DNA of 10,914 bases, taken from IMG/VR virus record IMGVR_UViG_3300010283_000213, positions 1 to 10,914 of that record, one strand, 5' to 3'. The notes under the pieces were generated by a model, which did no database searches, was not told the DNA's origin, and was given only the letters and a program-made list of their open reading frames with translations. This document shows, one piece after another, positions 2 through 10,914 of the stretch (its first letter is position 1; every line of letters starts with the position of its first letter). This DNA is from a virus. Taxonomy: Duplodnaviria; Heunggongvirae; Uroviricota; Caudoviricetes. The position numbers were made by a program, and so were the translations under genes.

Positions 2-2026
2 CAGGAACAGGACGGGCGACTGGCTGGCGATAACGTGCCACCTGTCTGGCTTGGAGAGCAACAACTTGCCGAACTGGACAACCTGCAAATCGTACCGGAC
101 GGACGCTATCGCGTGCGTCTCTATCAGGCGGGGTTATTGCGTCCGGGGCTTGTTAATACCATCGGGCAGAAACTGGCAGCGGCAGGTGTCAGGGATGCTG
201 ATTATTATCCTGAAGGAATGCACAGCCAGAAACGGGAGAACTGGCGCGAATATCTGGAACGTGAACGGGCAGAGCAGGCGGAAAAGAAAAAGGTAGTTGA
301 ACTGCCTGTAAAGAAAAAAGAGCCATGCTATCAGGATGATGAATTAAAGCCCCGCGTTGAAAGTCGCGTCGATGGTGTTTTCTGGGTAACGCCCAAAGTG
401 GATAAGCAGTCAGGCGAAATTATCCGGCCTGAGACGTGGTTATGTTCTCCGCTTGAACTACTGGGAACGGGGACGATCGGTAAAGAGCATTACCGCGTGA
501 TGCGCTGGAAAAAATTAGCAAACCATGAAGTCATCACAATGGCGATCCCGTGTGGTGGCATTGGCGACCGTGACGGCTGGCGGTTGCTTAAAGATCACGG
601 GCTGAATGTGACAACAAATGGCAAATACAGGGCTATCCTGGCTGACTGGATGCAGTTAAGCGGAAGCCATGAGGAATGGCAGTTAAGCACAACAACGGGC
701 TGGCATTTTGGCGCGTACATCATGCCGGACGGTTCAATCATTGGTGATTCTGAAAAACCGATCCTGTTTACCGGAAAAAGTGCCGCTGTTAATGGCTATT
801 CGGTTGCGGGTACGGCGGAGGGCTGGCGCGACAGCGTGGCGCGGCTGGCTGGTGGCAATCCGTCCATGATGCTGGGTGTTGCCACGTCACTGGCAGCACC
901 TTTGATTGGCCTTGTTGGTGCTGACGGCTTCGGGGTACATCTTTTCGAACAGTCATCGGCAGGGAAAACCACCACGCAGAACATCGCTTCAAGTTTATGG
1001 GGAGAGCCGGACGCGCAACGGCTGACCTGGTACGGAACGGCGTTAGGTATCGCCAACGAGGCCGAAGCACACAACGACGGGCTGTTACCCCTGGATGAAA
1101 TAGGCCAGGCCGGAAACGCGCGGGAAGTGTCCACGTCAGCCTATACGCTGTTTAACGGTTCGGGGAAATTACAGGGGGCGAAGGACGGCGGCAACAGGGA
1201 GATCAAACACTGGCGCACGGTGGCAATCAGCACCGGAGAAATGGATGTTGAGACATTCCTCAAAAGTGAGGGGGTAAAAGTCAAAGCAGGCCAGCTTGTC
1301 CGTCTGCTTAACGTACCGATGGAGAAAGCCACGCAATTTCACGAATACAGCACCGGAAAGGCGCACGCAGACGCGTTAAAGGATGCCTGGACTGCAAATC
1401 ACGGGGCGGCGGGTCGTGAGTGGGTTAAATGGCTGGCAGACCACCAGCAGGAGGCAAAGGACACGGTAAGGGAATGCCGCGAACGGTGGCACAACCTGAT
1501 ACCGGAGAGCTACGGCGAGCAGGTCCACCGCGTGGGGGAACGTTTCGCCATACTGGAGGCTGCGCTTGTGCTTTCCGGTCATGTAACTGGCTGGGCCGCG
1601 CAGGAATGCCGGGACGCAATACAGCATAACTTTAATGCCTGGGTGAAGGAGTTCGGCACGGGTAACAGGGAATTTAAACAGATGGTTGAACAGGCTGAGG
1701 CGTTTTTGTCGTCGTTCGGGTTCAGTCGATACCTTCCTTACCCAAACAGTGATGAGCGTGATTTACCGATTAAAGACCTTGCCGGATACAGAAAGGGGAG
1801 TATCAGAAATGAAGATGATGAGTTCCGTTTTTACACGTTTCCTCATGTGTTTGAGGGTGAGATAGCACAGGGATTTAATCCGTCTCACTTTGCCCGCGCG
1901 TTGAGTGCTGCCGGAATGCTGGAAGCGGGTAACGATCGCCGTTACAAGAAAAAGGCGCTCGGCAAAATTGGGGGTAAGCAGCATGTTTTTTACGTGATGA
2001 TGTTCCAGCCTGAGGCAGACGATTAA
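2..2026 (+). CDS. Replication primase/helicase (P4 alpha-like / Pri-Rep-like), 5'-partial: the reading frame is open to the window edge, so the GTG at 35 in the ORF track is not the true start
   Basis: Frame stays open from nt 2 with no upstream stop; 663+ aa; Walker A P-loop (SSAGKTTT) mid-protein; long C-terminal domain; TAA stop at 2024-2026; iteron array begins ~25 bp downstream, the usual replicon layout of P4-like and PICI satellites. Family assignment is from motif and context, not a search. Confidence 0.7.
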   Translation, partial: QEQDGRLAGDNVPPVWLGEQQLAELDNLQIVPDGRYRVRLYQAGLLRPGLVNTIGQKLAAAGVRDADYYPEGMHSQKRENWREYLERERAEQAEKKKVVELPVKKKEPCYQDDELKPRVESRVDGVFWVTPKVDKQSGEIIRPETWLCSPLELLGTGTIGKEHYRVMRWKKLANHEVITMAIPCGGIGDRDGWRLLKDHGLNVTTNGKYRAILADWMQLSGSHEEWQLSTTTGWHFGAYIMPDGSIIGDSEKPILFTGKSAAVNGYSVAGTAEGWRDSVARLAGGNPSMMLGVATSLAAPLIGLVGADGFGVHLFEQSSAGKTTTQNIASSLWGEPDAQRLTWYGTALGIANEAEAHNDGLLPLDEIGQAGNAREVSTSAYTLFNGSGKLQGAKDGGNREIKHWRTVAISTGEMDVETFLKSEGVKVKAGQLVRLLNVPMEKATQFHEYSTGKAHADALKDAWTANHGAAGREWVKWLADHQQEAKDTVRECRERWHNLIPESYGEQVHRVGERFAILEAALVLSGHVTGWAAQECRDAIQHNFNAWVKEFGTGNREFKQMVEQAEAFLSSFGFSRYLPYPNSDERDLPIKDLAGYRKGSIRNEDDEFRFYTFPHVFEGEIAQGFNPSHFARALSAAGMLEAGNDRRYKKKALGKIGGKQHVFYVMMFQPEADD

Positions 2027-2049: not shown

Positions 2050-2174
2050 TGCGGGTTATGCGGGTTATCCTGTGTATAAGTGAATTAACTGTATGAATAA
2101 AAAGGAAATCAATAACCCGCACGTAACCCGCAAAACGGCAGTTATAACCCGCAAAAGTGCGATTATAACCCGCA
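2050..2174. repeat. Iteron-type replication origin (cluster 1): 2 tandem TGCGGGTTAT-type repeats (2050-2068), an AT-rich spacer, then 4 inverted copies (A/G)TAACCCGCA at 2112, 2123, 2144, 2165
   Basis: Directly read: 9-10 bp repeats in opposite orientations flanking an AT-rich stretch (2069-2111); downstream copies spaced 11, 21 and 21 bp; located immediately 3' of the primase/helicase gene. Confidence 0.7.
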
Positions 2175-3200: not shown

Positions 3201-4370
3201 ATGAAGAAATTAATCGAACTCCGCCAGCAAAAAACCGCCCTGAAAAACCAGATGCGATCCCTGCTGGAAAAAGCCGACAGTGAAAACCGCAGCCTGAACG
3301 ATGACGAGGGCAAACAGTTTGATGAACTGCGTGCAAAAGCCGACTCCCTCGACACAGAAATTTCCCGCCTCGAGTCTGTGGCTGATGAAGAACGCAGCAA
3401 GCCAGGAACGGGCATCCAGAAATTATCATCTGATGAATTGCGTAACTACATCGTAACCGGAGATGTGCGATCACTGTCCACCAGCACTGACAGCGGCAGG
3501 GATGGCGGATATACCGTAATTCCTGAGCTCGATCGCGAAGTCATGCGCCAGCTACAGGATGACAGTGTTATGCGCGTGATCGCGACCGTGAAGACTGCAA
3601 AATCAAATGAGTTTCAGAAACTGGTTTCCACTGGCGGCGCAACTGTAGGACGAGGCACAGAAGGCAGCGCACGCAGTGAAACCAACACCCCGAAAATTGA
3701 ACGCGTAACCATCAAGCTGAATCCGATCTACGCCTACCCGAAAACCACGCAGGAAATCCTTGATTTTTCAGAGGTGGATATTCTGGGCTGGTTATCCTCC
3801 GAAATTGCCGACACGTTCGCCAGCACCGAAGAGGATGATTTTGTTAATGGCGACGGTAACGGCAAGCCGAAAGGCTTCATGGCTTACACCCGTGCGGCGA
3901 CCAGTGACAAAACCCGCGCTTTTGGCACCATTGAAAAAATGGTAGCGGCAAGTGGAACCGCCATTACAGCGGACGAACTGATCGACATTCTCTACAAGCT
4001 GAAAGCGAAATACCGCAAAAATGCCGTCTGGGTGATGAACTCGGGCACGGCAGGGACACTACAGAAGCTGAAAAATGAGAACGGCGATTATATCTGGCGC
4101 GACAGCCTTAAAGAAGGTGCGCCGGATATGTTGCTTGGTCGTCCTGTTTACTGCCTGGAGTCCATGCCGGACATCGGCGCAGGAAAAGCACCGCTAGCGG
4201 TTGGCGATTTCAGTCGTGGTTATTTCATCGTTGATCATGTAACAGGGATTCGCACCCGACCGGACAACATTACTGAACCCGGATTCTACAAGGTCCACAC
4301 GGATAAATATCTGGGCGGTGGTGTGGTGGATTCAAACGCCATCAAAATTCTGGAAATGAAAGCTGGCTAG
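3201..4370 (+). CDS. Major capsid protein, HK97 fold, with N-terminal coiled-coil scaffold (delta) domain
   Basis: 389 aa; N-terminal ~70 aa strongly charged with heptad-like pattern (MKKLIELRQQKTALKNQMRSLLEKA...), as in HK97-type capsid proteins with fused scaffold; followed by prohead protease and portal genes. Confidence 0.85.
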   Translation: MKKLIELRQQKTALKNQMRSLLEKADSENRSLNDDEGKQFDELRAKADSLDTEISRLESVADEERSKPGTGIQKLSSDELRNYIVTGDVRSLSTSTDSGRDGGYTVIPELDREVMRQLQDDSVMRVIATVKTAKSNEFQKLVSTGGATVGRGTEGSARSETNTPKIERVTIKLNPIYAYPKTTQEILDFSEVDILGWLSSEIADTFASTEEDDFVNGDGNGKPKGFMAYTRAATSDKTRAFGTIEKMVAASGTAITADELIDILYKLKAKYRKNAVWVMNSGTAGTLQKLKNENGDYIWRDSLKEGAPDMLLGRPVYCLESMPDIGAGKAPLAVGDFSRGYFIVDHVTGIRTRPDNITEPGFYKVHTDKYLGGGVVDSNAIKILEMKAG

Positions 4371-6936: not shown

Positions 6937-7105
6937 ACAGGAGCAAACCAGGCTGATACGTGGACTGATAAGGCAGCGTGACACATGGAAGACACAGGAG
7001 ACAGAGCACAAAGCCAACAGGACAGGGCGCACAAAACGCACCACAGCGAAGCGATTAACCGACCGTGACCGCGAGGTCATGGAATGTTTTCGCAATCGCT
7101 GGTGA
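6926..7105 (+). CDS. Possible small, highly basic protein (about 59 aa); coding status uncertain
   Basis: Frame-2 ORF whose unique part (6937-7105) lies between HNH and terS; Arg/Lys/Thr-rich product; DNA is A+C-rich and T-poor, so it may instead be non-coding packaging-site DNA. Confidence 0.25.
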   Translation: MMTEQEQTRLIRGLIRQRDTWKTQETEHKANRTGRTKRTTAKRLTDRDREVMECFRNRW

Positions 7106-7180
7106 GGCCGTCAGAGGGGGTGGGGGTGGTTTTCAGGACGAAACCGTCCCTGCCGGACACCGACCGCCCCCTCAAATTTT
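7106..7180. promoter_or_regulatory. GC-rich inverted-repeat element between HNH and terS: candidate cos/packaging recognition region
   Basis: GAGGGGGTGGGGGTGG (7114-7129) facing CCGACCGCCCCCTC (7160-7173), with inner palindromes GGACG..CGTCC and GTCC..GGAC (7135-7159); position HNH-[site]-terS matches where cos lies in HNH-terminase phages. Confidence 0.3.
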
Positions 7181-7224
7181 TGTGCACGGTAATTTTTTTG
7201 AAAATAATTGGGCGAAAAAAGAAC

Positions 7225-7581
7225 ATGGCAAGACCACCAAAAGCCCCCGCTTACCTGGATGAAATCGCGGTCAGGCAGTGGAAGGAAAAATCGCGCCAGC
7301 TTTCCGGGCGGGAAGACCTTACCCCCGCCGACTGGAGCAATCTGGAACTGTATTGCGTTAACTACTCCATATACCGCAAAGCCGTCGAAGACCTTGCGAC
7401 GCGCGGGTTCAGCATTGTTAACAGTCAGGGCAGCGAGAGCAGAAACCCCGCCCTGAGCGCAAAGGCTGACGCAGAAAGAATAATGATCAAAATGGCTTCT
7501 TTGCTGGGTTTTGACCCGGTAAGCCGCCGCAGAAATCCACCGGAAACAGAGGAAGAGGACGAGCTTGACTGCCTGGCATGA
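7225..7581 (+). CDS. terS: Terminase small subunit (P27-family-like)
   Basis: Internal ATG at 7225 (MARPPKAPAYLDEIAVRQWKEK...), 118 aa; the track's 7084 start would run through the GC-rich element; directly upstream of and overlapping the large terminase. Confidence 0.7.
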   Translation: MARPPKAPAYLDEIAVRQWKEKSRQLSGREDLTPADWSNLELYCVNYSIYRKAVEDLATRGFSIVNSQGSESRNPALSAKADAERIMIKMASLLGFDPVSRRRNPPETEEEDELDCLA

Positions 7582-9226
7582 GTACGCAGAAGGCGTAAAA
7601 AACGGCAAAATTACGGCCTGTAAACGACTGAAACAGGCCGTTAAACGGTATTTTTCTGACCTTGAAAACCCCCTTTACACGTTCGATCCGGAGGTCGTTG
7701 AGCGGTTTATTGCCTTTTCCAGGGTGTGTCCGCACGTAAAAGGCGCAATGCGTGGTAGCCCCATTGAGCTGGAGCCGTGGCAGCAGTTCGCCTTTGCGTG
7801 CATCCTGGGCTTTAAGGTTAAGGCCACCGGACGGCGCAAATACACCAGCGCATTCATTGAAGTACCGCGAAAAAATGCCAAATCCACGGTCGCCGCTATC
7901 CTGGCTAACTGGTTTCTGGTTATGGAAAACGGGCAGCAGGATATTTACACCGCCGCCGTGAGTCGTGATCAGGCGCGGATCGTGTTTGATGATGCGCGTC
8001 AGATGTGCCTTTTATCCCGACCGTTACGAAAGCGGGTAAATATTCAGGCACACAAGGTGATACACCCGAAAACCAACAGCCTGTTAAAGCCACTGGCAGC
8101 AAAAGCAGCAACCATTGAAGGTACAAACCCGAGTCTTGCCATTGTGGATGAATATCACCTGCACCCTGACAACGGGGTTTATTCCGCGCTTGAACTGGGA
8201 ATGGGGGCACGCCCAGAGGGGCTGTTATTTGCCATCACCACATCGGGGAGCAACGTTGTTTCAGCCTGTAAACAACACTACGACTATTGCTGCCAGATAC
8301 TGGATGGTGAAGAGGTGAACGAATCCATGTTCGTGCTGATTTATGAGCTGGATGATGAAAGCGAGGTTGACGATCCGGCGATGTGGATAAAGGCGAATCC
8401 CAATATCGATGTTTCCGTAGATCGTGAAAAACTGGCCTCAACCATCCAGAAAGCGCGGGGTATTCCGTCGCAGTGGGTGGAAATGCTCACCAAGCGATTC
8501 AATATCTGGTGTCAGGGGGCTACGCCGTGGATGGGTAACGGTGCATGGGCTGAGTGCGCCGGAACGTTCACGGAGGAAGATTTACACGGTCAGGAGTGTT
8601 ACGCGGGGCTTGATTTATCATCCACAAGCGACATCTCCAGCGTGTGCTATGCCTTTCCGGTTGGTAAAACCATTATGCTGGTTTCTCGTCACTATCTGCC
8701 GGAATTTCAGCTACAGAACCCCGCCAATAAAAACCGCGCCATCTATCGCCAGTGGGCAAAGGCGGGCTGGATACGCACAACACCGGGTGACTGCATTGAT
8801 TATGACCGTATCCGTGATGACATCATGCTGGATGCAGAGAATTTCAATATCAGGCTGGTGGGCTTTGATACGTGGAACGCCACGCACCTGAGAACGCAGT
8901 TACAGGGGGCAGGCTTTGAGGTGGAGCCGTTCCCTCAAACCTACCTTCGTTTCAGTCCGGCGGCGAAATCGTTCGAGGTTTTTGTTAACCGGAAGGTGAT
9001 TGTGCATCGTGGTGATCCTGTGCTGGCCTGGTCAATGAGTAATGTTGTGATGCAGAGTGACGCGAACGCCAATATCAAGCCGAACAAGAAAAAATCATCC
9101 AACAAGATAGACCCGAGCGTTGCGGCGCTGATGGCGTTTGGCACATTCCAGGCTGAGCATGAGGAATTTGCATTTGATATGAGCGACAGCCAGAAAGAGC
9201 GACTAGCGGCGTTTGATGGGGTATGA
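7565..9226 (+). CDS. terL: Terminase large subunit (ATPase + nuclease)
   Basis: 553 aa; Walker A-like PRKNAKST, Walker B-like LAIVDEYH, C-terminal acidic nuclease-type region; TTG start at 7565 overlapping terS end (an alternative downstream start is possible). Confidence 0.85.
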   Translation: MTAWHEYAEGVKNGKITACKRLKQAVKRYFSDLENPLYTFDPEVVERFIAFSRVCPHVKGAMRGSPIELEPWQQFAFACILGFKVKATGRRKYTSAFIEVPRKNAKSTVAAILANWFLVMENGQQDIYTAAVSRDQARIVFDDARQMCLLSRPLRKRVNIQAHKVIHPKTNSLLKPLAAKAATIEGTNPSLAIVDEYHLHPDNGVYSALELGMGARPEGLLFAITTSGSNVVSACKQHYDYCCQILDGEEVNESMFVLIYELDDESEVDDPAMWIKANPNIDVSVDREKLASTIQKARGIPSQWVEMLTKRFNIWCQGATPWMGNGAWAECAGTFTEEDLHGQECYAGLDLSSTSDISSVCYAFPVGKTIMLVSRHYLPEFQLQNPANKNRAIYRQWAKAGWIRTTPGDCIDYDRIRDDIMLDAENFNIRLVGFDTWNATHLRTQLQGAGFEVEPFPQTYLRFSPAAKSFEVFVNRKVIVHRGDPVLAWSMSNVVMQSDANANIKPNKKKSSNKIDPSVAALMAFGTFQAEHEEFAFDMSDSQKERLAAFDGV

Positions 9227-9513
9227 CGAGAATGACTGAAACTGATCTACTAAAAATAATTCGCCGCATTACCGGAATCAGTCAGCAGCCTGACGAACAG
9301 GCTACACAGCCGGACAGCGTGATAGCCGAAAATTACGCGCGTGTGGTGGCTGAGGTAATGCGCCGTGACGGTATTGAGCTTAACGGCGTGGATATGCGCA
9401 ACATACGAACCAGAGTTCTTGAGTTGCTGGCATACCGTCGCCGTTCTCAACAACGGAGGGAGAGCGCGAAAAATACTTACCAGTGGAGGAAGCCGGAGCA
9501 CTTACGGCGGTAA
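9223..9513 (+). CDS. Hypothetical small protein (96 aa), last gene of the packaging operon; possibly a head-completion/adaptor protein
   Basis: ATG overlaps the terL stop (ATGA); Arg-rich C-terminus; no family recognised. The adaptor role is inferred from position only. Confidence 0.5.
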   Translation: MTRMTETDLLKIIRRITGISQQPDEQATQPDSVIAENYARVVAEVMRRDGIELNGVDMRNIRTRVLELLAYRRRSQQRRESAKNTYQWRKPEHLRR

Positions 9514-9552
9514 CTGGTTGATATTACCGAAAGTGCAAAAATGCACTTAGCA

Positions 9553-9646
9553 ACTGGTGGCGAGTTGCAGATCTGCAACTCGACTATGAAACTACGGAAA
9601 CTACCCGTAGTTTGGGTAGTAAGAGCAACACCCAGATTTTGGGGCT
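9553..9646. repeat. 94-bp structured direct repeat, copy 1 (contains a 22-bp perfect palindrome and nested heptamer repeats)
   Basis: 90/94 identical to 9987-10080; palindrome CGAGTTGCAGATCTGCAACTCG at 9561-9582; then AAACTAC-GG-AAACTAC-CC-GTAGTTT-GG-GTAGT. Confidence 0.8.
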
Positions 9647-9708
9647 TACTTGCGATACCCAAATATAGGGTATCGGTGGCATCACTGGCCCCACTTTCCT
9701 GATGTGTT

Positions 9709-9862
9709 TGCGGGTTATTTGGGGGTGGTTGCGGGTTATTTTGAATGGCTTGCGGGTTACGATTTGGCTAACATTTGAACGTGTCATTTTTCAACGCATT
9801 GATATTAAATAATAAAAAATACTTAGCACGCGAAGATAACCCGCTAACCCGCATAACCCGCA
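9709..9862. repeat. Second iteron cluster (ori- or crr-like): 3 direct TGCGGGTTA(T/C) at exact 21-bp phasing (9709, 9730, 9751), a ~75-bp AT-rich spacer, then 3 inverted TAACCCGC copies (9836-9862)
   Basis: Same iteron sequence as cluster 1 at 2050-2174; followed by (TA)5 at 9882-9891; no ORF of convincing coding character spans it. Confidence 0.7.
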
Positions 9863-9986
9863 CTGTTTTGTATATATATACGAAAAATTGCATTCAGGAG
9901 GGGGAGCAAAATCCCTACCGTCTCTTATCTCTTGGAGTGCCCGCCTCTTCGAATTTTAACCCCCGTGAAATTACAAAATTTCCCTG

Positions 9987-10080
9987 ACTGATGGCGAGTT
10001 GCAGATCTGCAACTCGACCATGAAATTACGGAAACTACCCGTAGTTTGGGTAGTAAGAGTAACACCCAGATTTTGGGGCT
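9987..10080. repeat. 94-bp structured direct repeat, copy 2; ends exactly at the IS903 left terminus
   Basis: Mismatches to copy 1 at 4 positions; palindrome at 9995-10016; similarity to copy 1 stops at 10080, where the IS terminal inverted repeat begins. Confidence 0.8.
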
Positions 10081-10914
10081 GGCTTTGTTGAATAAATCGA
10101 ACTTTTGCTGAGTTGAAGGATCAGAGCACGTATCTTCCCGACAACGCAGACCGTTCCGTGGCAAAGCAAAAGTTCAAAATCACCAACTTGCCCACCTACA
10201 ATAAAGCCCTCATCAACCGTGGCTCCATAACTTTCTGGCTGGATGATGAAGCCATTCAGGCCTGGTATGAGTCGGCAACGCCTTCATCACGGGGAAGACC
10301 TCAGCGCTATTCTGATCTCGCCGTCACCACCGTTCTGGTCATTAAACGCGTGTTCAGGCTGACCCTGCGGGCTGCACAGGGTTTTATTGATTCCATTTTT
10401 ACACTGATAAATGTTCCGTTGCGCTGCCCGGATTACACCAGTGTCAGCAAGCGCGCAAAGTCGGTTAATGTCAGTTTCAAAACGTTCACCCGAGGTGAAA
10501 TCGCGCATCTGGTGATTGATTCCACCGGGCTGAAGGTCTTTGGTGAAGGCGAATGGAAAGTCAAAAAACACGGCAAAGAACGCCGTCGTATCTGGCGGAA
10601 GTTGCATCTGGCCGTTGACAGCAACACACATGAAATCATCTGTGCAGACCTGTCGCTGAACAACGTAACGGACTCAGAAGCCTTCCCGGGTCTTATCCGG
10701 CAGACTCACAGAAAAATCAGGGCAGCATCGGCAGATGGCGCTTACGACACCCGGCTCTGTCACGATGAACTGCGGCGTAAGAAAATCAGCGCCCTTATCC
10801 CACCCCGAAAAGGTGCGGGTTACTGGCCCGGTGAATATGCAGACCGTAACCGTGCAGTGGCTAATCAGCGAATGACCGGGAGTAATGCGCGGTGGAAATG
10901 GACAACAGATTACA
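10081..10914 (+). mobile_element. IS903-group (IS5 family) insertion sequence, left end and most of the transposase gene; continues beyond the window
   Basis: Starts with GGCTTTGTTGAATAAATCG, which I recognise as the IS903 terminal inverted repeat; the downstream ORF translates to a DDE transposase closely resembling IS903 transposase as I recall it. Confidence 0.85.
10158..10914 (+). CDS. IS903-group DDE transposase, 3'-partial (runs off the window)
   Basis: Hand translation from GTG 10158 is open to the window end (252 codons): VAKQKFKITN...LHLAVDSNTHEIICADLSLNNVTDSEAFPGLIRQ...ASADGAYDTRLCHDEL... Absent from the ORF track only because no stop is reached. Start could also be the TTG at 10113. 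Confidence 0.85.
   Translation, partial: MAKQKFKITNLPTYNKALINRGSITFWLDDEAIQAWYESATPSSRGRPQRYSDLAVTTVLVIKRVFRLTLRAAQGFIDSIFTLINVPLRCPDYTSVSKRAKSVNVSFKTFTRGEIAHLVIDSTGLKVFGEGEWKVKKHGKERRRIWRKLHLAVDSNTHEIICADLSLNNVTDSEAFPGLIRQTHRKIRAASADGAYDTRLCHDELRRKKISALIPPRKGAGYWPGEYADRNRAVANQRMTGSNARWKWTTDY

Follow-up and report, generated by a model that had tools for sequence, protein, structure and literature searches.

Which function, if any, a palindrome-rich repeat fulfils at the right end of a phage satellite is the question raised by a 10,914-nt stretch of viral DNA (IMG/VR record IMGVR_UViG_3300010283_000213, hereafter the window). Near its end, two direct copies of a non-coding repeat bracket a cluster of iterons, and the second copy stops at an insertion sequence. 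A sequence-only reading of this DNA had proposed an att-related duplication, a terminase or regulator recognition module, or a small mobile intergenic repeat.

Repeat copies and host island

Judging from its gene content, the window is a capsid-forming PICI (cf-PICI). Its primase gene and first iteron cluster (Table 1) precede the SSB, major capsid, prohead protease, portal, connector and HNH genes, an order taken from our own annotation and from that of near-identical islands, and the gene set agrees with the cf-PICIs described in bioRxiv 10.1101/2022.09.08.507074. The repeat region falls in the non-coding DNA that separates the last ORF from attR at the right end of the island.

The repeat search of the window aligned 9553-9651 with 9987-10085 at 94% identity over 99 nt. 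Over the 94 nt originally described, 90 positions are identical, as claimed, and the four differences are G/A at 9557, T/C at 9585, C/T at 9592 and C/T at 9626. The perfect 22-bp palindrome CGAGTTGCAGATCTGCAACTCG reported for each copy was found in both, and the scan of the window for the core of this palindrome gave 2 matches compared to 0.06 expected. The copies had also been said to carry two direct plus two inverted AAACTAC heptamers. Exact AAACTAC occurs at 9589 (+), 9598 (+), 9607 (-), 10032 (+) and 10041 (-), i.e. five times compared to 0.89 expected. The described layout therefore holds only loosely: GGGTAGT (ACTACCC), a degenerate form, takes the fourth place, and copy 2 has AAATTAC as its first heptamer.

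After copy 1, the sequence continues into the hairpin GATACCC..GGGTATC at 9654-9674, as had been seen. It had been suspected that the original unit was longer than 94 bp and that the IS had inserted into it, and the intact relatives bear this out. Two E. coli chromosomes (L001 and L002, with the island adjoining clpS) and several IMG/VR contigs present two full 118-nt copies, 97% identical and 434 bp apart. Since the third hairpin is included in both copies of these relatives, copy 2 of the window was truncated by the IS, which inserted after base 94. From 10081 on, the DNA matches at 99.9% identity an IS5-family element that over 5,000 plasmids carry, and the terminal GGCTTTGTTGAATAAATC at the junction is that of IS903. 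The IS junction of the window was found in 0 of 5,426 complete E. coli genomes.

The complete unit is ordered as palindrome 1, the heptamer block, a small CCCA..TGGG hairpin and palindrome 3. The spacer hairpin AGTGCAAAAATGCACT that precedes copy 1 is one of several exchangeable cassettes placed after the stop codon, whose variant stems differ and are still complementary.

Table 1 Features of the window that bear on the repeat unit (positions from the first letter of the window).
Feature	Positions	Strand	Basis or remark
DUF927 primase gene	35-2026		gene 1 of the window in order
First iteron cluster, canonical PICI origin	2051-2173	.	directly 3' of the DUF927 primase gene; layout as in PMC6092414
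P27-family TerS gene	7225-7581		
TerL gene	7565-9226		
Small ORF, 96 aa, PHROG_1561, no Pfam domain	9223-9513	+	last gene of the packaging operon
Spacer hairpin AGTGCAAAAATGCACT	9532-9547	+	sequence; position after the stop codon
Unit copy 1, complete	9553-9679	+	covariance model, 164 bits
Palindrome 1, perfect 22 bp, CGAGTTGCAGATCTGCAACTCG	9561-9582	.	arms invariant in 37 variants except three positions
Unit core, 118 nt, GAGTTGCAG to GGTATCGGTGG	9562-9679	+	repeat comparison with intact relatives
Heptamer block AAACTACGG-AAACTACCC-GTAGTTTGG-GTAGT	9589-9620	.	2 direct and 2 inverted sites, 9-bp phasing
Palindrome 3, CGATACCC-N7-GGGTATCG	9653-9675	.	part absent from copy 2
Second iteron block	9710-9861	.	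GCGGGTTA, 3 direct (9710, 9731, 9752) and 3 inverted (9837, 9845, 9854)
Unit copy 2, truncated after 94 nt	9987-10080	+	115.8 bits; palindrome 1 at 9995-10016, heptamer block at 10023-10054
IS5-family (IS903-like) left end	10081-10914	+	99.9% identity; annotated IS5 family transposase; runs off the window

Distribution and relation to island modules

The unit was found in 704 of 5,426 complete E. coli genomes, at 801 places of which 799 are chromosomal, with a median of 1 and a maximum of 6 copies per genome. Some 85 IMG/VR contigs contain it as well, and so do Salmonella enterica islands, where the copies are near-identical to those of E. coli. In the plasmid database 5 records match the unit, one of them a 10.79-kb circularised PICI. 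The comparison with 50,697 phage genomes gave no match, and mimicry of a helper phage was rejected on this ground. A covariance model built from 37 variants detected no diverged unit in 69 sources without a BLAST match, two more pattern scans of IMG/VR for diverged units gave only one further match, at chance level, and a scan of genome contigs with the small ORF returned one locus, which lacks the unit.

The unit occupies one fixed place near the right end of the island. In the 105 loci holding both, it always lies 3' of the small ORF, on the same strand, at a distance of 45-790 nt. In the cases examined, the search of host and related genomes advised by the sequence-only reading led to satellites only, and by this distribution the unit is a satellite-specific non-coding cassette of the PICI-type satellites of E. 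coli, Shigella and Salmonella. Normally there is one per island, behind the small ORF that closes the packaging/late operon. The cassette is apparently undescribed: it is not annotated in the records examined, and PMC6092414, PMC6739421, PMC9026076, PMC10111431 and the cf-PICI preprints (including 10.1101/2022.09.08.507074) do not describe it. It is also optional. The small ORF was found at 2,021 places in 1,574 genomes, so that only about 40% of the islands with this ORF carry the unit (L123 and L006, for instance, have the ORF and lack the unit, and the covariance model detects no diverged copy in such islands), and it is missing from about 60% of otherwise similar islands.

These data bear directly on the roles proposed at the outset. 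The place of the unit behind the terminase genes and close to the end of the island, its richness in palindromes and, in the window, its GGCGAG start had suggested a packaging signal, an att-arm duplication or a MITE-like repeat, all of which we now consider very improbable. A terminase recognition module does not agree with the company that the unit keeps. It is found, 93-100% identical, alongside three unrelated TerS types, namely Terminase_4/P27 (in a packaging module comprising TerS, TerL and HNH), PHROG_141 (DUF1441) and PHROG_57 (Phage_Nu1). It lies downstream, after terS, terL and a further ORF, whereas the cos site of HK97 is 49 nt upstream of terS and that of Rpp-PICIs about 100 nt upstream of rpp (PMC9026076). 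Moreover, among the 80 closest cf-PICI loci (TerL at least 93% identical), 27 have the iteron module and are without the unit, and the covariance model finds nothing there. The lambda cosN sequence GGGCGGCGACCT was not found near the unit within 2 mismatches. The resemblance to the P2/P4 cohesive end, which had been offered as a hint, comes down to 6 nt (GGCGAG) in common with the 19-nt P4 end, and most relatives have GGGTGAG instead.

An att arm would be expected within about 250 bp of the crossover core and with one integrase/att pair. Between the unit and the att cores there are 300-640 bp, and the unit is common to islands inserted at clpS, at the tRNA gene by mug and inside prophage late genes, the latter being helper-embedded PICIs as in PMC10111431. 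The idea of a small mobile intergenic repeat fares no better, with a median of one copy per genome and, in all 105 loci with both, the same small ORF ahead of the unit. The 801 places in 704 genomes are not the many unrelated loci of a known dispersed enterobacterial element. As the unit is specific to satellites, fixed in position, often absent, and independent of the terminase, integrase and primase (it co-occurs with three terminase types and with differing integrases, att sites and primases), the cos, att, ori and MITE roles were excluded.

The DNA between the two copies deserves separate consideration. Iterons placed around an AT-rich core 3' of pri-rep are the canonical layout of a PICI origin (PMC6092414), and the inter-copy segment 9710-9861, with an AT-rich core between the direct and inverted GCGGGTTA sets, has exactly the layout and the iteron of 2051-2173. 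In the window GCGGGTTA is matched 13 times compared to 0.33 expected, and the second block and the primase-proximal origin use this same iteron. The likeness to a PICI origin concerns the DNA between the repeats and not the repeats themselves. Such a second, right-end module is not mentioned in PMC6092414, PMC6739421 or 10.1101/2022.09.08.507074, and it is common in cf-PICIs. Unaccompanied by any unit, it is found in 215 genomes at 80-90% identity, and the inter-copy segment of the window is present in only 19 genomes at 95% identity or more.

The unit could also be an accessory of replication. The two repeats and the second iteron block would then make up a cis region like crr of P4, or the unit would serve the primase-helicase as a single-strand initiation signal. 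The window's repeats do bracket an origin-like block with the primase-proximal iteron, P4 (with a fused primase-helicase) needs ori and a distant crr made of two 120-bp direct repeats by attP (X51522), and the unit forms several stable hairpins on either strand, like single-strand initiation signals. Nevertheless, we judge this role quite improbable. The unit contains no GCGGGTTA iteron, and an iteron-type origin or crr within the unit itself was rejected, the iterons being only between the copies and after the primase gene. About 90% of the unit-bearing islands have a single copy with no iterons nearby, and one island (L122) has the unit together with another primase and is devoid of GCGGGTTA iterons. 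Conversely, the iteron module enters islands that lack the unit, among them L123 and L124, and is found without it in the 27 of 80 cf-PICI loci, of which 19 lack the small ORF and 8 have it. The two copies are direct, whereas inverted ones would be expected if both strands were primed.

The bracketing of an iteron cluster by two copies, as originally noticed, is real; it is not the normal state of the element, and appears to be a rare, lineage-specific product of recombination. Two copies occur only with the iteron block in between, in about 20 genomes, and wherever unit and module are together on a long enough contig the order is unit-module-unit. The left junction reads ..GGTATCGGTGG/CATCACTGG and the right one ..CTGATGG/CGAGTTGCAG, while single-copy islands have at the same place ..GGCTGGTGG/GTGAGTTGCAG, which is a Chi site. 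The junctions of the duplication fall at Chi or Chi-like motifs (..GGTGG or ..GATGG). We infer that, in the lineage of the window, an iteron-type origin module came to lie between two cassette copies when this mosaic region recombined twice, at short homologies of the Chi-like kind. The paired copies would therefore be a by-product of module shuffling, not a functional pair by design, and the IS903-like element would later have cut copy 2 after base 94.

Conservation, folding and possible protein-binding features

Between island backgrounds, nucleotide identity amounts to 93-100% in the unit and to only 78-97% in the adjoining ORF. Since it is more conserved than the adjacent coding sequence, the unit is probably functional, and its high identity argues for constraint or for recent modular spread. 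With spread only, the unit would have no function of its own and would be a hitch-hiking recombination cassette or scar, kept alike by recent horizontal transfer and gene conversion. We regard this as rather improbable. The right-end non-coding DNA is indeed a mosaic of exchangeable cassettes with sharp junctions, Chi or Chi-like motifs are present at junctions, the unit is polymorphic for presence or absence with diverged intermediates lacking, and near-identical copies in E. coli and Salmonella fit a recent transfer. A scar does not, however, readily account for a unit that outdoes its coding neighbour in conservation across many backgrounds, keeps its palindromes with compensatory changes, holds the same position and orientation in 105 of 105 loci and is present in 704 genomes.

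Our preferred reading, proposed with low confidence, is that the cassette acts on the sense strand as a folded 3'-UTR element of the late mRNA. Its three or four stable stem-loops, lined up before the terminator of the operon, would shield or insulate the 3' end of this mRNA, or would yield a 3'-UTR-derived RNA. The position of the unit, its co-orientation with the small ORF in all 105 loci, its folding scores, its conservation relative to this ORF, the compensatory changes and its occurrence regardless of the packaging, integration and replication modules are consistent with this proposal.

No + strand terminator is predicted between the small ORF and the unit, even in the presence of intervening cassettes or of the iteron block. 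In most islands the unit is followed by a terminator-like hairpin, which in intact islands consists of ACCGAGGGCGGAATTCCGCCTTCGGT then TACTTATTGT, about 45 nt 3' of the unit, and contains a G.T pair that fits the + strand only. Together with the co-orientation of the unit and the operon, the missing intervening terminator and this downstream hairpin suggest that the unit may be transcribed. Against the proposal, the downstream hairpin lacks a U tract in L005, the group that diverges most. Inside the unit there is no intrinsic terminator, as no hairpin there has a T run, and no sigma-70 promoter was found in or adjoining the unit on either strand. A candidate sigma-54 promoter, CTGGTGGGTGAGTTGCA, shows the TGG-N8-TTGCA spacing in many single-copy islands; because this spacing is lost in the window (1 nt shorter) and in the L068 group, the match was attributed to the Chi site abutting the palindrome. 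A coding role was discarded as well. A 26-codon ORF (ATGAAACTACGG...) and antisense ORFs cross the unit, and their starts and stops are not conserved, the ATG of the former being lost in L016 and an early stop appearing in the L095 group.

Compared with shuffled sequences, the folding z-score of the unit is -6.2 on the + strand and -7.0 on the - strand, and that of the 244 nt from the stop codon to just past the terminator is -8.6 and -9.7, respectively. The - strand folds equally well or better, as expected of any DNA that is palindromic, and this weighs against an RNA in particular. Among the 37 distinct variants, 97.4% of the stem cells pair. Double changes were observed in 2 of 32 pairs, C-G > U.G > U-A at the base of palindrome 3 and A-U > C-G inside it. 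As the variants differ little (77-100% identity), the covariation test is not decisive, and in the shuffle control, which is weak, the score was reached in 15 of 500 cases and the number of pairs in 65 of 500. The commonest polymorphisms are C/T changes giving G.U on the + strand (T.G in 20/37 at 10-31 and in 13/33 at 41-68), and A.C-type cells, which would fit the - strand, are rare. This pattern of variation, made of few independent events, points weakly to pairing on the sense strand.

The unit gave nothing at the gathering score of Rfam 15 (best matches at chance level, E of 0.46 or more), and no tRNA- or tmRNA-like structure was found in it. Its complementarity to the rest of the island is limited to chance 10-11-mers, and antisense targets inside the island were rejected on this basis. 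A more specific version of the proposal would see in the cassette a novel structured RNA, specific to satellites and derived from the late operon's 3' end, which, possibly with the PHROG_1561 protein, controls the output of this operon or acts on the helper or the host. We consider this version unlikely. In the structural model, the arginine-rich C-terminal helix of PHROG_1561 loosely resembles RNA-binding peptides of the N type. The analogy with lambda N/boxB (arginine-rich tail and hairpins with A-rich loops) was kept as a lead only, as the residue spacing differs. If true, this version would define a new RNA family confined to PICI-type satellites and swapped among them as a module.

Several features of the unit are typical of double-stranded DNA recognised by proteins, and each of them counts against a folded RNA. 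Palindrome 1 is symmetric through its centre in both variant forms, AGATCT or AAATTT, a symmetry that is needless for the loop of an RNA hairpin and typical of a site for a dimeric protein. The heptamers, direct-direct-inverted-inverted at 9-bp phasing, resemble operator arrays, and the unpaired linkers are conserved to the same degree as the stems. That the cassette is optional, being present in about 40% of the small-ORF islands, also speaks against the 3'-UTR proposal. Nearly as likely as the 3'-UTR element is a double-stranded platform for one or several DNA-binding proteins, dimeric or oligomeric, where a nucleoprotein complex would form at the island's right end. Such a protein might be encoded by the host, by the helper or by the satellite itself, in which case PHROG_1561, whose C-terminal helix is basic, is a possible candidate.

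A platform would account for the dyad of palindrome 1 being kept through the centre in its two forms and for the invariant core of the heptamer block, the 7-2-7 palindrome AAACTAC-NN-GTAGTTT, with extra sites alongside at 9-bp phasing. A 9-nt deletion removes exactly one heptamer in two separate variant backgrounds. One variant group has the middle two bases of the 7-2-7 palindrome inverted (CT vs AG), a DNA-level event typical of palindromes. The two TACCC-N7-GGGTA dyads are about 54 bp apart, roughly five helical turns, and the conserved linkers fit as well. The unit is always found beside the same small gene, as in many protein/site pairs, and the protein of this gene is predicted to be all-helical with a long basic C-terminal helix (pLDDT 69.5).

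On the other hand, about 60% of the islands have the small ORF without the unit, so the ORF does not need it, and the motifs of the unit are identical even where the basic C-terminus of the ORF differs. No DNA-binding fold or family was found for the small ORF, and its model gave no match in the PDB with E below 1.8. The motifs of the unit are absent elsewhere in the islands, and the change at the base of palindrome 3 through T.G fits pairing better than half-site recognition. Among host factors, the motifs of NarL (7-2-7), CytR, PurR, CpxR and LexA do not fit in spacing or sequence. Of the earlier suggestion of sites for a dimeric DNA-binding protein or a structured RNA, what stands is a discrete, palindrome-dense cis element, for which both readings are still plausible.

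Comparison with known systems

PICI and cf-PICI satellites are major vehicles of gene transfer in Enterobacteriaceae, and their known cis elements are att, ori and cos. The unit adds a further conserved non-coding cassette in cis, independent of the packaging, integration and replication modules. If functional, as an RNA or as a protein platform, it would mark an unstudied step of the satellite life cycle and would also be a useful marker for the detection of satellites.

The cos sites of lambda, HK97 and Rpp-PICIs (PMC6739421, PMC9026076) are, like the unit, cis-acting, partly symmetric, associated with terminase genes and bound by protein, the binding being only putative for the unit. They differ in lying upstream of terS or rpp, while the unit is downstream, terminase-independent, optional and without cosN. 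The REP/BIME, ERIC and MITE elements are also short, palindromic, non-coding and repeated. The unit, in contrast, has a median of one copy per genome and one fixed position in satellites, with no terminal inverted repeats or target duplications.

The omega protein of pSM19035 is a small dimeric repressor that acts on arrays of heptad operators. The unit likewise has 7-bp motifs, direct and inverted, with regular phasing; this phasing is, however, 9 bp, the sites are only 3-4, and no ribbon-helix-helix or helix-turn-helix partner was found. In the retroregulation of lambda, sib is a structured 3'-UTR element. It is located downstream of int, whereas the unit is upstream of int in the circular form of the island.

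Satellites can encode regulatory RNAs, as in the case of the PLE sRNA (bioRxiv 10.1101/2022.04.08.487710). Like such 3'-UTR elements and sRNAs, the unit is a run of hairpins extending from a stop codon to a terminator-like hairpin and co-oriented with the operon, with a weak G.U bias on the sense strand and a compensatory change. It differs from them in having no Rfam family, promoter of its own or target in the island. By analogy, the unit itself comes closest to two kinds of element, multi-site operator platforms on one side and structured 3'-UTR elements or sRNAs of satellites on the other.

For the arrangement in the window, the nearest named precedent is, again by analogy, P4. P4 and the satellite of the window depend on a helper, encode a large replication protein of the primase type and each contain two separate clusters of their iteron. 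Direct repeats of some 120 bp close to the att end are a further shared trait (annotation of X51522), those of P4 crr being located beside attP, 4.7 kb from ori. The repeats of P4 carry type-1 iterons and are 180 bp apart, whereas here the flanking copies are iteron-free and 434 bp apart, and in most islands the unit is single-copy and iteron-free, or even accompanies another replicon. The right-end iteron module nevertheless recalls the ori/crr pair of P4, and replication from two sites in PICIs thereby becomes testable.

Chi sites and the circular and helper-embedded islands

The 10.9-kb window contains 9 Chi sites (GCTGGTGG), 6 on the plus strand and 3 on the minus strand, against 0.49 expected from shuffled sequences, which is a strong enrichment. 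The 10.8-kb circular island L122 also contains 9 Chi sites and the E. coli two-copy island L001 (1-13700) contains 15. Chi density in these islands is approximately 4-fold that of the E. coli chromosome, which carries about 1 Chi per 4.6 kb. Most islands with a single copy of the unit have a Chi directly adjoining the 5' edge of that copy. The enrichment may guard concatemers or cut ends against RecBCD.

The E. coli record L122 (NZ_CP148328.1, 10,790 bp), deposited as a plasmid of the non-mobilizable class, is a PICI in circularised form with the order int, alpA, primase, capsid-protease fusion, DUF1441 TerS-like gene, small ORF and unit. It shows the excised state, with the unit ~480 bp upstream of int. 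Helper-embedded PICIs have been described (PMC10111431). The unit-bearing islands L004 and L005 directly precede prophage late genes truncated at their 5' end (terminase gpA, major capsid) and are, therefore, helper-embedded PICIs of this kind. In L005, an abortive-infection gene lies between the prophage gene and the unit.

The 96-aa ORF, its 3' cassettes and the IS junction

The conserved C-terminus of the 96-aa ORF is an arginine-rich tail, RRRSQQRRESAKNTYQWKKPERLRR, placed within a long C-terminal helix in the AlphaFold model (pLDDT about 60-80). The tail presents a loose likeness to the arginine-rich RNA-binding motif of lambda N, RRRERRAEKQAQWK, with a different spacing.

The DNA 3' of this ORF is a mosaic of ~45-nt cassettes, each starting with a TAACTnGnTGATATT-like copy of the region of the ORF's stop codon, followed by a short hairpin. 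The stems vary among cassettes yet remain complementary (ACGCAAAATTGCGT, GTGCAAATTTGCAC, CCTCAATTTTGAGG, GGCCCAAAAATGGGT and GCGCAAAATTGCGC).

The IS5-family insertion at the exact position found in the window was absent from 5,426 complete E. coli genomes and is, therefore, private to the source of the window. In the IMG/VR contig L012, an independent break interrupts the unit after GATTTTGGG, at almost the same point.

Features of the window and of related islands
Feature	Record	Position
Chi	Window	848, 1441, 2267, 2293, 3478, 4481, 4733, 5967, 8854
Primase-proximal origin	Window	2051-2173
G+C-rich gap	Window	7105-7225
Arginine-rich tail	Window	9433-9513
~45-nt cassettes	Window	9514-9552
	L001	12111-12460
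	L068 (another unit variant group)	620-870 (- strand)
	L006 (small ORF without unit)	3288-3520
	L005	2850-3000
11-mer, second occurrence	Window	9720
Second iteron module	Window	9710-9861
	L123	2540-2700
	L124	2540-2700
	L129	about 4735
End of second iteron block	Window	9860-9891
IS junction	Window	10081
Truncated prophage late genes	L004	3330-4460
	L005	4178-4966

Candidate cos region and second iteron module

Between terS and a small ORF after HNH, the window presents a 120-bp G+C-rich gap (GGGGGTGGGGGTGG ... CCGCCCCCTC), which, from the analogy with HK97, would be the expected location of cos in this cf-PICI. Its 11-mer TGGGGGTGGTT is found again inside the second iteron block.

This second, origin-like module, found in 243 E. 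coli genomes, is frequent at the right end of cf-PICIs and of islands related to them. Of the 80 closest cf-PICI loci, 31 carry it. It directly follows terL, without the small ORF, in 19 loci. The block ends with CACTGTTTTGTATATATATACGAAAAATTGC. This sequence, an overlapping palindrome that contains a run of (TA)5, has a vague similarity to one half of an SOS (LexA) box and is kept in the unit-free modules of L123 and L124. A second right-end iteron module is not described in the PICI papers PMC6092414, PMC6739421 and 10.1101/2022.09.08.507074. The iteron GCGGGTTA is common to this module and to the primase-proximal origin, and the two together recall the ori/crr pair of P4.
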